Shown here piece after piece: positions 38,254 through 55,904 of a DNA stretch of 64,000 nucleotides. The stretch comes from Thermoanaerobaculia bacterium (GTDB lineage Bacteria > Acidobacteriota > Thermoanaerobaculia > UBA5066 > Gp7-AA6). The first letter of the stretch is position 1. The number at the start of each line of letters is the position of its first letter. The translations under genes were made by a program, and so were the position numbers. The DNA lies in NCBI GenBank assembly GCA_041912555.1, contig JAYRMU010000017.1, positions 2,608 through 66,607 of the forward strand. The letters run 5' to 3'. Below the pieces are notes generated by a model. The model made no database searches. It saw only the letters and a list, made by a program, of their open reading frames with translations, and was not told the origin of the DNA.

Positions 38254-38330
38254 CGGGGCGTAGCGCAGCCTGGTAGCGCACTCGGTTCGGGACCGAGTGG
38301 TCGGTGGTTCAAATCCTCTCGCCCCGACCA
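38254..38330 (+). tRNA. tRNA-Pro (anticodon CGG)
   Basis: Cloverleaf: acceptor CGGGGCG/CGCCCCG, D-stem GCGC/GCGC, anticodon stem CTCGG/CCGAG with loop TTCGGGA, T-loop TTCAAAT, encoded CCA. The T-stem has a T-T mismatch at position 51:63. Confidence 0.85.
38285..38330 (+). repeat. attL: 46-bp tRNA-Pro 3' segment repeated at ~55859-55904 (1 mismatch)
   Basis: gttcgggaccgagtggtcgg[t/a]ggttcaaatcctctcgccccgacca is present at both positions. It spans from the anticodon loop to the 3' end, the classic integrase target. Confidence 0.65.
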
Positions 38331-38438
38331 GCCTATCCCGAAGCGACTGCGCGACTTGCTCCGCGTTCCTCCGATTATTAAAACGCACACGTTCGTGTGC
38401 AGCGGACCTGTTCGGGACCTGATAACGGGCTCCCCGAT

Positions 38439-39575
38439 TCATCGGGCCTCCTTCTCCTGCTCGGCCTGCTCGTCCTTGCCGGTCAGGAAGTGGACCGTCG
38501 CCCGGAGTGCCGCGCGGGAGTCCTTCGTCGTGGGGATGTTGTAGCGGTCGAACACCGCCCGCGTCTTGTGGCCCGTGATCCCCATCGCCACGATCGCGGG
38601 GACTCCGGCGCGGGTCATGTTCGTGATCGCGGACCGGCGGAAGTCGTGGAAGTGGAGGCCGGGTTTCCCGGCGGCCGTGCAGGCCCTCGCCCACCGCTTG
38701 CGCCAGTCGCCCAGGGGGCGGCCGTTCTCGTGGAACACGAAAGTCGAGAGCGACGGGCCGTCCGGCGTCTCGAACCGGCGAGCGGCCTCACGGCGCGCGA
38801 TCACCTCCGCGAGCTCCGCCTCGAGCGGCAGCACCCGGCCGCGACCGTTCTTCGAGGTGTAGAGCCACGCCTCGCCGTTCTTCGTGTCGATCCGGTCGAA
38901 GGTGAGGCCCTCGACCTCGCCACGCCGCCAGCCGGAGCGGTAGGCGAACAGGCAGACGTCGGCGTGGACGCTCGGGGCGCCGTTGACCCCCGAGAGCGCC
39001 CGGTACAGCTTCCAGAAGTCCTCCTCCTCCACGAACCCCTGCCGCACGTTGTCCACGTGGGCGAGCTCGAAGTAGGGGACCCGATCGACCGAGATCCGCT
39101 TCTTCTTCGCCGCGAGGATGTAGGCGGAGCGGAGGATCTCGAAGTAGTGATCGACCGTCGAGAGGTCCCGCCGCTTGCCCGAGACGGTGCCGTCCTTCCT
39201 CGGGGCCCGGTCCTCCGCCAGCCACGCCGTCCGCGCGTGTTCGAGGGTGGCGGCCGTGACCTCGACCGCCTTCAACGGCCCGAGGGCGGCCGAGATGATT
39301 TTCCGTTGAGGGTCGAACGTCTCAAGGGACTTCTTCCCGCGCAGGACGAGGCTCTCACGGTAGGCGGTCAGAAGGTCCTCGACGGTGAGCGTGGCCTCCT
39401 CGGCGTAGGCGAACCGGCCCGCGGCGACCTCTTTCCGAAGGGCGCGCCAGGCCTCGAGGGCCTCGGACTTCGTGCGGAACGGTCCCCGCTTGAGACGGGG
39501 GAGGTGCTTGCGGGGGACGAAGCACCACCAGCTGTTCCGATCCTTCGGCTTGAAAACTCCGCCGTCGCCCCTCAT
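38439..39575 (-). CDS. int: Tyrosine-type site-specific integrase (island, adjacent to attL/tRNA)
   Basis: 378 aa with the C-terminal catalytic region HDFRRSAITNMTRAGVP...GH.T...YNI (R-H-R-Y). Confidence 0.85.
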   Translation of the reverse strand: MRGDGGVFKPKDRNSWWCFVPRKHLPRLKRGPFRTKSEALEAWRALRKEVAAGRFAYAEEATLTVEDLLTAYRESLVLRGKKSLETFDPQRKIISAALGPLKAVEVTAATLEHARTAWLAEDRAPRKDGTVSGKRRDLSTVDHYFEILRSAYILAAKKKRISVDRVPYFELAHVDNVRQGFVEEEDFWKLYRALSGVNGAPSVHADVCLFAYRSGWRRGEVEGLTFDRIDTKNGEAWLYTSKNGRGRVLPLEAELAEVIARREAARRFETPDGPSLSTFVFHENGRPLGDWRKRWARACTAAGKPGLHFHDFRRSAITNMTRAGVPAIVAMGITGHKTRAVFDRYNIPTTKDSRAALRATVHFLTGKDEQAEQEKEAR

Positions 39576-39736
39576 CGCCGCCCCCTTCTCGCCTTCCGGG
39601 TGAGGAACCGTTCGAGGGCCTCGATCACGATCGAGCGGAAGTCGGTGTCGTCCTCCGCCGCCCTGATCCGCGCACGGCGGTGGAGGTCCGCGGGCAGGAT
39701 GATCGTCGTTTTCTTCCCGGGTCCCGGTTTCGTCAT
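39572..39736 (-). CDS. Ribbon-helix-helix (CopG/Arc-like) small DNA-binding protein
   Basis: 54-aa MTKPGPGKKTTIILPADLHRRARIRAAEDDTDFRSIVIEALERFL...; ATGA overlap with int. Confidence 0.55.
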   Translation of the reverse strand: MTKPGPGKKTTIILPADLHRRARIRAAEDDTDFRSIVIEALERFLTRKARRGRR

Positions 39737-39762
39737 GGGGCCGTCCTTTCTGCTCTACGGCT

Positions 39763-53446: not shown

Positions 53447-54419
53447 CTGCACGCCTCCACTTCCAGAGATAGCAGGCGAGTCAAATGCGCGGCAGCGTGC
53501 GTGAGTGGGTGCGGCGGGAAAATGCCTTTTTCCCTCCACGGCCCGGTCGCGGTTCGGGCAGGTCACGTGAGGGCGCGACCGGGGCCTCCTTCCTTTTTCT
53601 GGCCTTCCCGGCCGCGGCGGCCGTCTGCGGCGATCACCCGGCGGGGCGTGCGTGCGTCTGGCCTGCCTCGCGCTCGAGGGCGTCCAGCTTCGAGGGCCGG
53701 GGCCGCGCGGCATCGCCTACCCAGGGCGAACGCGAATCGCCCAGAGGCGAACGCCCAGAGGAGCAGGCGAAGGCGAGAGCCTCATCGCCCTCACCCTTTC
53801 GAGAGCGAAGCGAGCGAGAAAGAGGAATCACGAGCGAGAAAGGCGAGAAAGTGGAGCGTGTGAGCTCTGCCCGGGCGGCATCGAGGGCGGCCTTTTCCGG
53901 TCACGAACAGGTACAGGGCGAGCGCGAGGCGTTGAACCTCTTGAGCGTGTGAGGCTTGCAGCGTCGTGCGTGGGCCCATTCGGTCCTCCACACGATGCGC
54001 GCCCACGCTATCCGCAGGAATGGCGCGTATTGATAGAGCAGGTCTGCCGCCGCCTGCCGGTTACATGGGTTCCGGGGACCCCTGAACGCTGGCGGGCGCT
54101 CTGGAAGCGGGCGCCCGCGATGAGCGTGGACGAGGGCGAAGGCCCGGGCGAACGTGCGCCTTTTTTTCGAGGGTGTTTTCGCGCGCCCGGCCGGGACAGC
54201 TCGAGGACGCCGGGCCCGCTGGCCGCGGGGAATCTCGAGGTCGAGGCCGGGGCTCGTGCGCGCGAACGTGCAGACGAGCCACCGAGACGGTCACGGACCC
54301 ACGTTCCAGGCGGGGGCGTCCGGGCGGCGGCCGCGCGGGTCAGAACTGCCCGAACCCAGAACCTCAGAGAAGTGGGGATATGCGAGGCCCTGAACGTGAG
54401 GGCGAAGGCGGGCCGCGCC

Positions 54420-55445
54420 CTACTCGACCGGCTCGAGGCCGAGCGGCGACGAGAGGGCCGCGCTCGGACCCCACGGCGCGACCCGGTTCGCCTTGCCCGC
54501 GATCGCCGCTTCGCTCCCGAGCAGGATGTAGCGGCGGGTCGTCTCAAGCGACCGATGCCGAAGCCACGCCTGAATCTCGAGGAGCGGGACGCCCCGCGCG
54601 TAGAGGTGCGTGGCCCGCGAGTACCGGAGCGCGTGTCCAGAGAGCCGCCGGTTCCCGGCCTCGATCCCGGCCGCGGCCATGCGTTTCTCGAGGACCGCGC
54701 GAAAACCGTTCGCCCCGATGCCCGCCACCGAGTCCCGCGTCGTGGGGCCGAACGGCGGAAAGAGGGCGGCGTGTTGAACCCCGGCCCGCTCGAGCTCCGC
54801 GAGGTAGTCCCGCACGAGGCCATCGACCTTCGGGTCCACGCGCCTCGTGACCGGGGCGGCGGAGTGCTTCGCCTCCCTGATCGTGAGAAACGAGCCGTTC
54901 TTTCGGACGGCGTAGTCGGCCAGGCGAAGGGCTCCGATTTCCCCGACGCGGAGGGCCTGCATATACGCGAGGCCGAGGGCCGCGCGATCGCGGGCCTCGG
55001 TGAGGAGCCACACGCGAGCGCGAAGGCGGAAGAATTCGTCCGGCTCGTCCGGGCCCTGAACCGGCGCGGCCGTCCGGGCCTCGAGGATGAGCCGCCCGAC
55101 CTCCGCCTCGGTGAACACGTCGATGCGGCGGCGTTCGCGGGCCTTCCACACGACCATGCCCTTCGAGGGGTTCGCGGGCGTGAGGCCGCGCGAGCTCGTG
55201 AACTCGAAGAACACCGACAAGGCCGTCAGGCGTCCCCGGCGGGTGGCCTCGGACAGTCCCGCGTGGGCCAGCTTCGAGGCATAGCGGTCGAGGTCCGCCA
55301 GCGTGACGCGGGAGAAGTCCTCGACCCCGAGCCGCCGCCGAAGGTCCCGCACGGCGTCCGCGTAGGTCGTGGCGGTGTTCTCGGCGTTGCCGCGCGTGTC
55401 CACCAGGTACGCGACGAAGGCGGAAAGGATCTCGTCGGCGGTCAT
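54420..55445 (-). CDS. Second tyrosine recombinase (XerC/D-like integrase) near attR
   Basis: N-terminal SAM-like domain MTADEILSAFVAYLVDTRGNAENTATTYADAVRDL and C-terminal ...HALRYSRATHLYARGVPLLEIQAWLRHRSLETTRRY (R..H..R..Y). Confidence 0.8.
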   Translation of the reverse strand: MTADEILSAFVAYLVDTRGNAENTATTYADAVRDLRRRLGVEDFSRVTLADLDRYASKLAHAGLSEATRRGRLTALSVFFEFTSSRGLTPANPSKGMVVWKARERRRIDVFTEAEVGRLILEARTAAPVQGPDEPDEFFRLRARVWLLTEARDRAALGLAYMQALRVGEIGALRLADYAVRKNGSFLTIREAKHSAAPVTRRVDPKVDGLVRDYLAELERAGVQHAALFPPFGPTTRDSVAGIGANGFRAVLEKRMAAAGIEAGNRRLSGHALRYSRATHLYARGVPLLEIQAWLRHRSLETTRRYILLGSEAAIAGKANRVAPWGPSAALSSPLGLEPVE

Positions 55446-55711
55446 TCGGCGGGGCCGCCTCCACGGAACGGCCGCGAGCGCGCGACCTCGGTCCGTTTCC
55501 GGTGGAGGTCCGGGGCCTCGCGGGCCACGAGGCGGCGGATCGAGCCTTCGAGAACGCGCACGCGGCGGGACCGTTGAAGGTTCCGCGAGACGTCGCGGTA
55601 GGACAGCACCGGGAGGCCGTCCGGCCCGAACATCTCGCACCGCCCGAGAATCCACGCCTTCTCGTCGCGCGTGAGGTCCCCGAGCCGCGCGATCTCGATC
55701 CGCTTCTTCAT
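55442..55711 (-). CDS. Small protein upstream of second recombinase (89 aa; possible recombination directionality/regulatory factor)
   Basis: MKKRIEIARLGDLTRDEKAWILGRCEMFGPDGLPVLSYRDV... with a strong SD (gaggag); ATGA overlap with the recombinase. Confidence 0.5.
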   Translation of the reverse strand: MKKRIEIARLGDLTRDEKAWILGRCEMFGPDGLPVLSYRDVSRNLQRSRRVRVLEGSIRRLVAREAPDLHRKRTEVARSRPFRGGGPAE

Positions 55712-55858
55712 TGCGTCTCCTCGCGACCTATTCGTGACCGGATCACCTGATGGCAGGGGATAGCAGAGGGGAGGCGGGAGATTTTCGAGGGAGCAGAAAA
55801 GCCAGCATTCACGGGCCTTTTCCGCTCACCGAGATTCACGCGATAGCAGGCCCCGCGT

Positions 55859-55904
55859 GTTCGGGACCGAGTGGTCGGAGGTTCAAATCCTCTCGCCCCG
55901 ACCA
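55859..55904 (+). repeat. attR: 46-nt tRNA-Pro 3' fragment (orphan; not a complete tRNA)
   Basis: Matches the tRNA from the anticodon loop to the discriminator+CCA. It has GGAGG where the intact gene has GGTGG. There is no 5' acceptor or D-arm upstream. Confidence 0.65.

Follow-up and report, generated by a model that had tools for sequence, protein, structure and literature searches.

What is the 17.6 kb island that sits in the tRNA-Pro(CGG) gene of a Thermoanaerobaculia bacterium, and can it be a phage satellite if it encodes a terminase and no recognizable part of a phage head? The island lies at 38254-55904 of the 64,000-nt stretch of contig JAYRMU010000017.1 (assembly GCA_041912555.1, contig positions 2,608 to 66,607) that we analyzed, hereafter called the window. 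All coordinates refer to the window unless another locus is named. An earlier sequence-only reading had described an element bounded by a direct repeat of the tRNA and had proposed either a satellite resembling the phage-inducible chromosomal islands (PICIs) or a decayed prophage. Here, we find that the 17.6 kb between the two repeat copies are almost certainly an integrated mobile element in a Thermoanaerobaculia chromosome. The element encodes a confirmed large terminase subunit (TerL) next to a probable small subunit (TerS), and we favor, at about an even chance, a satellite-like element that brings along its own terminase holoenzyme.

The integration target is the tRNA-Pro(CGG) gene at 38254-38330 (plus strand), called by both ARAGORN and Rfam. 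The 46 nt from its anticodon loop to its CCA end form the attL core (38285-38330, plus strand), and an orphan copy of this 3′ part forms the attR core at 55859-55904 (plus strand), with host-like flank beginning 'AAT...' next to it. The two cores differ at a single position (T at 38305, A at 55879), and their starts are 17,574 nt apart. The tRNA, the orphan copy, and the one mismatch had been noted before, and all three are confirmed here. The 25-nt and 20-nt halves of the repeat each occur exactly twice in the window with up to 3 mismatches allowed, where shuffled sequences are expected to yield about zero. A search for the core beyond the two ends found no third att copy and no internal att site in the window, even with 3 mismatches. 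That the right copy might be a second full tRNA gene is ruled out, as the DNA 5′ of 55859 is unrelated to the tRNA 5′ half, and neither ARAGORN nor Rfam finds anything tRNA-like at this end. The integrase gene adjoining the tRNA-side att, int1 (38439-39575, minus strand), lies 109 nt from the tRNA and encodes a 378-aa tyrosine integrase (PF00589, 5.5e-19; phrog_1, 2e-39) with the R..HxxR..Y residues visible in translation. We read these junctions as those of a tyrosine-recombinase-type insertion into the 3′ part of tRNA-Pro(CGG), of which int1 is the probable catalyst. The predicted attB junction is ...GCGCACTCG + GTTCGGGACCGAGTGGTCGGAGGTTCAAATCCTCTCGCCCCGACCA + ATCTCTCCCCTCGCG, and the predicted attP junction is ...GATAGCAGGCCCCGCGT + core + GCCTATCCCGAAGCGACTG. 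Composition does not mark the island, with a GC content of ~0.70 both inside and outside.

Next, we compared the locus with those of related genomes. Upstream of the tRNA lies the gene for a Ser/Thr kinase, and the orthologues of this kinase, 70-84% identical, come from genomes that are labeled Thermoanaerobaculia or Acidobacteriota by their sources, which bears out the Acidobacteria-like host suggested previously. Three loci served for the empty-locus comparison (L087; L088, a 3.4 Mb contig; and L089), with kinase orthologues 80-84% identical. All three have genes for transketolase, glucose-6-phosphate dehydrogenase, elongation factor G, FdhD, the kinase, and tRNA-Pro(CGG) in the same order, and none has an integrase or any other island gene after the tRNA. 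The island is thus missing from three of three relatives aligned. Synteny with L089 resumes at a HI0933-like gene (~62750-63930), which is 0.9 kb past the tRNA in L089 and 24.4 kb past it in the window. An exact empty site within the same species was not found. The DNA to the right of attR, from 55905 to ~62750, is variable and also missing from the three relatives. It encodes a YgbA_NO protein, a 125-aa open reading frame (ORF), a CBAH hydrolase, a GT2 glycosyltransferase, and a sulfatase. The closest relatives of the CBAH hydrolase are from Proteobacteria (53-76% identity), a scan with it gave no empty site, and the flank that carries it is probably foreign itself. Therefore, the earlier claim that the repeat bounds the island stands for the 17.6 kb element and falls for the foreign DNA as a whole. 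The content of the tRNA-Pro locus differs in every relative, and the locus looks like a hotspot with older foreign DNA outside the att repeat.

The mismatch between the two cores falls at tRNA position 51, which is T in the window tRNA (38305) and A in all three relatives as well as in attR. Because the relatives and attR share A51 while the window tRNA has T51, the pattern shows that the element contributed the part of the present tRNA between the anticodon loop and the 3′ end and that attR, with the ancestral A51 kept, is the host's original 3′ part. Beyond the CCA end, the relatives and attR read 'AAT/AAA...' and attL reads 'GCC...'. This combination of the A/T pattern and the flanks is the expectation for attB × attP recombination and puts the crossover on the 5′ side of position 51, either inside the anticodon loop or immediately 3′ to it. 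The replacement has a structural cost. T51 leaves U51 and U63 mismatched in the T stem, and the cloverleaf, which is the minimum-energy fold with A51 (-35.9 kcal/mol), is no longer so with T51 (-31.7 kcal/mol). That the repeat arose by chance or duplication in ordinary chromosome, as the unchanged GC content might suggest, is effectively refuted by repeat halves expected zero times in shuffles, by the absence of the region from three syntenic relatives, by the A/T signature, and by integrases at both ends. We also note a Logan contig from the same sample (L004, SRR26835170) that corresponds to window 44657-55888 with one single-nucleotide difference, at 54229. Its end falls exactly one base to the island side of the attR core, where a de Bruijn graph would branch if the sample has reads of an intact A51 tRNA-Pro. 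Empty-site cells or an identical tRNA-Pro of related species explain this end equally well, and we did not use it as evidence.

One island gene encodes a 735-aa protein (50410-52617, minus strand). As a single sequence it has no match in Pfam, PHROGs, NCBIfam, PADLOC, or the PDB sequences, and it has only five relatives in an index of 5.8 billion proteins. Searching 1.84 billion cluster representatives with a profile gave 219 relatives. In an alignment of 72 sequences, Q137, G156, K157, D457, and D643 are invariant, and D252, E253, and D513 are nearly so. Searched against the PDB, the family profile matches T4 gp17 (5.6e-11, ATPase) and the G20c nuclease (6e-8), as well as the terminases of P74-26 and D6E, and a few distant family members match Terminase_6N and Terminase_6C. 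An AlphaFold2 model built from 6 sequences was unusable (predicted local distance difference test score, pLDDT, of 47) and was replaced by one built from the 72 sequences, with a pLDDT of 86.7. A Foldseek search with this model indicates T4 gp17 as the best structural equivalent (5e-16), followed by the TerL proteins of HK97, D6E, and Sf6. The ATPase resembles those of gp17 and P74-26, and the nuclease resembles the G20c, SPP1, and RB49 domains. The N-terminal domain is an intact ATPase of the additional strand catalytic glutamate (ASCE) class with Walker A (VGKTRD) and Walker B (FDE) motifs, and the C-terminal RNase H-like nuclease domain keeps its catalytic aspartates. In the relatives, the gene stands between terS and a portal gene; the window itself has no portal. 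The family profile matches to solved terminases, the AlphaFold2 model, and synteny together confirm the protein as TerL. As a side observation, a CPxC motif (C534, P535, and C537, in residues ~530-540) is invariant in the six closest TerL sequences. It belongs to an inserted segment of the nuclease domain and could form a small zinc-binding element of a kind not seen in the solved terminases that we compared.

Directly 5′ of TerL lies a 205-aa protein (52614-53231, minus strand) that is probably TerS, judged by its conserved position and a weak similarity to Terminase_4. A homologue occupies the same position in all related loci examined, with 37-49% identity to the closer ones. The Terminase_4 matches are below threshold and were obtained for 4 of 11 members of the TerS family (best 2e-4), and no match was found among the PDB sequences.

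We then examined what follows TerL in related loci. Nine distant TerL contexts, at no more than 47% identity, were available (L001/L002, L003/L102/L090, L005, L006, L103, L104, L105, and L106), among them L001/L002 from the Acidobacteriota metagenome-assembled genome (MAG) GCA_030155925.1. In all nine, a gene for a Mu-like portal (PF06074) starts ~0-70 nt past the TerL stop, and wherever the contig continues, the portal is followed by a 450-470-aa protein, a decoration protein, and a capsid-like protein. Next to terS, several of these phages also encode an integrase with 34-42% identity to the second island integrase, int2 (54420-55445, minus strand). Int2 is a 341-aa XerC/D-like tyrosine recombinase with PF02899 and PF00589 matches; its NCBIfam XerD/XerC-like matches are far under the cut-offs. 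A search of the related phage loci for the tRNA-Pro core, which bears on the sites used by int2-type integrases, gave no match. An 89-aa protein next to int2 (55442-55711, minus strand) has a homologue in L102 (42% identity, 1e-7). Int2, TerS, and TerL are homologous to adjoining phage genes at 34-47% identity (L001, L102/L003, and L105). Because these phages have homologous TerS, TerL, and neighboring integrase genes, gene content and order indicate that the int2-TerS-TerL block derives from a temperate phage clade with Mu-like portals. The related phage contigs are 34-45 kb long, so that the 17.6 kb island is about 40-50% of their length.

The closest relatives of the island TerL tell a different part of the story. 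The window TerL, a sequence termed P0002 (from ERR12040025), and L101, a contig from a JGI soil-type metagenome (Ga0265327_10039448 of Ga0265327), form a tight group with 78-80% mutual identity (78% between the window and L101). On L101, the sequence past TerL has a Trp/Arg-rich ORF of 79 aa, then an ORF of 129 aa, and then the beginning of a third gene; none of the three is portal-like. In the window, the position of the relatives' portal is occupied by a gene for a 231-aa Trp/Arg-rich protein with a hydrophobic segment (49724-50419, minus strand), whose start overlaps the TerL end. Both members of the group with known downstream sequence therefore lack an adjacent portal and have small non-portal genes instead. 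As the TerL of L101, at 78% identity, also has no adjacent portal, the portal-less state would predate the divergence of the window element and L101, and it looks old and maintained. The ratio of nonsynonymous to synonymous substitution rates (dN/dS, Nei-Gojobori) for TerL is 0.22 between the window and L101, and likewise 0.22 for a phage pair of similar divergence, L003 and L005. This ratio indicates that the island TerL is under purifying selection. Two further observations concern L101. Its 79-aa ORF was tried as a homologue of the 231-aa protein, and the marginal similarity at the C-terminus (E = 0.11 in a single comparison) was not counted. The third ORF (2386-2565 of L101) begins MSGARSGSKMKVSTLEFSG...FAYVGRTGD, has no Pfam match, and is cut by the contig end.

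We searched the island for the remainder of a virion by several routes. The island ORFs gave no match to a portal, capsid, tail, or lysis gene in Pfam, PHROGs, or NCBIfam, nor did those scanned with PADLOC, and a tblastn search of the window with all proteins of L001 and L003 matched only int2, TerS, and TerL. Remote comparison by hhalign of 11 unassigned island proteins, the longest unassigned ORF being 317 aa, with alignments of the clade's portal, 472-aa protein, and capsid gave less than 1% probability for each. The head, tail, and lysis modules of a complete prophage are thus absent from the island by these searches, as the sequence-only reading had proposed, and the structural module that a remote-homology search might have turned up did not appear. 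The 231-aa ORF 3′ of TerL was considered as a portal remnant and rejected (BLASTP E >2; hhalign <1%).

The part of the island next to the tRNA resembles the mobilization and replication equipment of a small integrative element. The GC3 frame plot, which follows GC content at third codon positions, places nearly all genes on the minus strand. Next to int1 are genes for a 54-aa Arc-like RHH (ribbon-helix-helix) DNA-binding protein (39572-39736, minus strand; phrog_6506 Arc-like repressor, 1e-4) and an excisionase-family helix-turn-helix (HTH) protein of the HTH_17 type (39763-40167, minus strand; PF12728, 6e-11; TIGR01764 'excise', 36.5 bits against a cut-off of 28.8; phrog_66). These are followed by a RepB-type primase with a PriCT_1-like region, 499 aa in the NCBI call (40768-42267, minus strand; phrog_10514 DNA primase, 1.4e-12; PF16793 weak), in which no helicase domain was detected. 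Primase homologues carry PF16793 and PF08708 and are located in small int-AlpA-primase islands; in IMG/VR, a scan with the primase found only L118, an element of 15 kb that is unrelated. Three iteron-like repeats of ~33-40 nt, each with GGGAA-N-TTCCC, overlap the primase ORF at its 3′ end (40881-41047), and the coding signal of the primase fades over them. These repeats may be a replication origin or an operator array. Further along the island is a 69-aa XRE-type HTH regulator (46975-47184, minus strand; HTH_31, HTH_3, and PHROG transcriptional regulators). Profile matches thus recover each gene listed in the earlier description, namely two integrases, RHH protein, excisionase, primase, XRE regulator, and the terminase pair, with TerS assigned from position and weak similarity.

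How would such an element move? If it is a satellite, activity of a helper phage of the Mu-like-portal clade would lead to excision via int1 and the excisionase, and the island would replicate from its own primase and iteron origin. The island TerS would recognize a site on island DNA, and the island TerL would dock on the helper portal and package island DNA into procapsids made by the helper, which would also supply tails and lysis. We lean toward a satellite because the closest TerL relative also lacks a following portal and because TerL is under purifying selection. Furthermore, at the point where a deletion should have left a scar, the TerL stop is overlapped by an intact and strongly coding gene with strong GC3. 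For replication, the island has a module of the type known from the small int-AlpA-primase islands, not from the phage clade, and the element is complete between its att sites, with an intact terminase. More tentatively, the window element and the L101 and P0002 fragments might be an undescribed kind of satellite in Acidobacteriota that has TerS and TerL and no head genes. With similar reserve, such a kind could be placed between PICIs, which have TerS only, and capsid-forming PICIs (cf-PICIs), which have a whole head and a terminase.

Several points weigh against a satellite. L101 covers just 0.9 kb past TerL, so a portal farther downstream is possible, and the P0002 contig stops 41 nt past TerL and is uninformative on downstream genes. 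Part of the TerL divergence behind the dN/dS ratio may predate portal loss. Only one complete copy of the element is available, in a MAG, and none of the island proteins tested clusters with another protein at 90%. The orientation of int2 relative to terS is inverted compared with the phages, a weakly coding gap of 1.2 kb (53.2-54.4 kb) lies between int2 and terS, and a cargo gene related to S-layer homology (SLH) proteins is frameshifted. We identified no helper prophage, no gene for capsid-size redirection, and no pac or cos site. Excision, induction, and packaging of the island are steps that we infer. Finally, of the four satellite families compared (PICI, cf-PICI, P4-like, and PICI-like element, PLE), none pairs TerS and TerL without head genes (PMC10085698, PMC10690885), and a non-exhaustive literature search turned up no described satellite family that does.

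The strongest alternative is a defective prophage, in which a temperate phage with the int-terS-terL-portal order integrated at this locus or underwent recombination with an island already present, after which everything from portal to lysis was deleted, leaving the terminase genes as remnants yet to decay. The homology of int2, TerS, TerL, and the 89-aa gene to the left end of L001, L102, and L105 is as this history would have it. With the portal directly after TerL in those phages, a single deletion could yield the island layout, and the frameshifted cargo gene, the weakly coding spacer, and the inverted int2 would all be at home in a decaying element. However, no truncated portal or other structural remnant was found, and the gene at the expected breakpoint is intact, strong in GC3, and overlaps the TerL stop. 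TerL also retains every invariant catalytic residue with a dN/dS of 0.22, the portal-less L101 implies a state older than its divergence from the window element, and the replication and regulation genes of the island have no homologues in the phage loci. The same holds against a comparison with cryptic prophages in general: these share with the island a phage-derived block without a virion module and one frameshifted gene, whereas the island has intact TerL and TerS, purifying selection on TerL, and a diverged relative in the same portal-less state. We consider the defective prophage less likely than the satellite but still plausible.

Less likely again, and rather improbable, is an accreted composite, in which a small int1-excisionase-primase island of the L119/L120 type was fused to an unrelated int2-TerS-TerL phage fragment, an internal att site was lost, and the terminase has no role in mobility. 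The two different integrases at opposite ends would be explained in this way, the primase has relatives in 5-7 kb int-AlpA-primase islands without terminase, and the tRNA-Pro hotspot, with different content in each relative and more foreign DNA to the right of attR, is a place where accretion might occur. Yet no third att copy exists in the window even at 3 mismatches, almost all genes form one continuous set in one direction, and a composite leaves both the selection on TerL and the portal-less relative unexplained.

A satellite-like element with its own terminase, our favored reading, can be compared with the known kinds. Like a PICI (e.g., the Staphylococcus aureus pathogenicity islands, SaPIs, with TerS), the island is site-specific and ~15-18 kb long. 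Also in common are an integrase, an HTH protein of the excisionase or AlpA-like kind, a primase that has repeats next to it, a small regulator, a gene resembling terS, and the lack of capsid, tail, and lysis genes. The island falls within the ~10-18 kb of an integrase-primase-regulator island. Unlike PICIs, it encodes a TerL that is intact and of full length; TerL is the marker by which cf-PICIs are told apart from PICIs (PMC10085698). No protein resembling Stl, Rpp, Cpm, or Ppi is recognizable in it, and it further differs in its second integrase and its Acidobacteriota host. By its gene content, the island would work most like a PICI and yet fails the PICI definition on TerL. Of the earlier proposal of a PICI-like satellite or a decayed prophage, both branches survive, with our lean to the satellite, and the PICI label in its strict sense does not. 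With the cf-PICIs and the Streptomyces satellites MulchRoom and MiniFlayer, the island shares a TerS and TerL captured from phages (PMC10085698, PMC10690885). Those satellites also have genes for a major capsid protein, a portal, a protease or scaffold, and head-tail connectors, to which cf-PICIs add an HNH nuclease. The island has none of these; our Pfam and PHROGs searches and comparison with the clade's portal and capsid gave no such match. P4-like satellites differ as well, as no Sid, Psu, Delta, or Ash match was found with PHROG or Pfam, and the island primase is of the RepB type rather than a P4 alpha primase-helicase. The small islands L119 and L120 share an integrase, a small HTH protein or excisionase, and RepB_primase + PriCT_1 followed by cargo, but they are 5-7 kb long and have no terminase genes. 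The phages with the int-TerS-TerL-Mu-like portal order (L001, L102/L003, and L105) share the homologous adjoining integrase, TerS, and TerL; unlike the island, where int2 is inverted, they run on into genes for portal, 450-470-aa, decoration, and capsid proteins.

Acidobacteriota are abundant in soil. To our knowledge, almost no phage-host systems have been characterized in this phylum, and nearly all definitions of phage satellites come from Proteobacteria, Firmicutes, and a few Actinobacteria. If the island is a satellite, it would represent a third packaging strategy, in which the element brings the whole motor and none of the shell. Its TerL would be a natural case of a terminase obliged to work with the portal of another genome, with a bearing on how terminase-portal specificity evolves. 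On a more ordinary reading too, the locus identifies tRNA-Pro(CGG) as a hotspot of integration in Thermoanaerobaculia, offers a clean case of a tRNA whose 3′ half was donated by an element and weakens the T stem, and anchors a rare, previously unannotated TerL family to the terminase fold.

The remaining island genes encode envelope-type cargo and proteins of unassigned role. The best-defined cargo gene (48532-49287, plus strand) encodes a secreted protein with a signal peptide and, in another frame from ~49105, an SLH-type C-terminal domain. It is homologous to SLH-anchored proteins of the host (15693-16469 of L087; ~30100-30340 of the window), has a lower GC content, and is followed by a strong hairpin terminator at 49297-49326. 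The frameshift near 49105 is present in both the NCBI and Logan assemblies, which were built from the same reads. Between the primase and this gene are a 146-aa protein of phage family phrog_15768 (42264-42704, minus strand; 5e-22) and a DUF6009-like protein with an uncertain start codon (43000-43800, minus strand), whose PF19472 match (3.5e-6) is just under the cut-off and whose coding status is supported by the GC3 plot. A 251-aa protein with a strong coding signal (45132-45887, minus strand) has no match in Pfam, PHROGs, PADLOC, or NCBIfam. Next to it is a secreted Thr/Pro-rich repeat protein of 136 aa (45916-46326, minus strand) with an 18-nt periodic DNA repeat (family D1). Over 45908-46326, this repeat region encodes a signal peptide and then a (T-x)n/Pro-rich stretch, the odd composition of which misleads the GC3 plot as to strand. 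A 210-aa putative lipoprotein (46346-46978, minus strand) has a LAATAC lipobox-like motif and a weak Rap1a match only, and the 317-aa protein already compared with the clade capsid and portal (hhalign <1%) is encoded at 47292-48245 (minus strand). The 231-aa protein has no homologue at 90% clustering or in IMG/VR, and IMG/VR scans with the 317-aa and 251-aa proteins gave no relatives. PADLOC finds no anti-phage defense genes among the ten larger island proteins. Several further small island proteins lack an assigned function.

Other tRNA calls were made in the material that we compared. In the phage locus L103, a tRNA-Met gene (4956-5031 of that locus) lies between TerL and the portal gene. 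Where the portal gene ends in L003 (5182-5274) and L102 (8390-8482), ARAGORN also reports a 'tRNA-Glu' of 93 nt on the other strand, which is probably a false positive. In the window, far from the island, ARAGORN calls a tRNA-SeC gene with anticodon TCA at 6790-6857 (minus strand).

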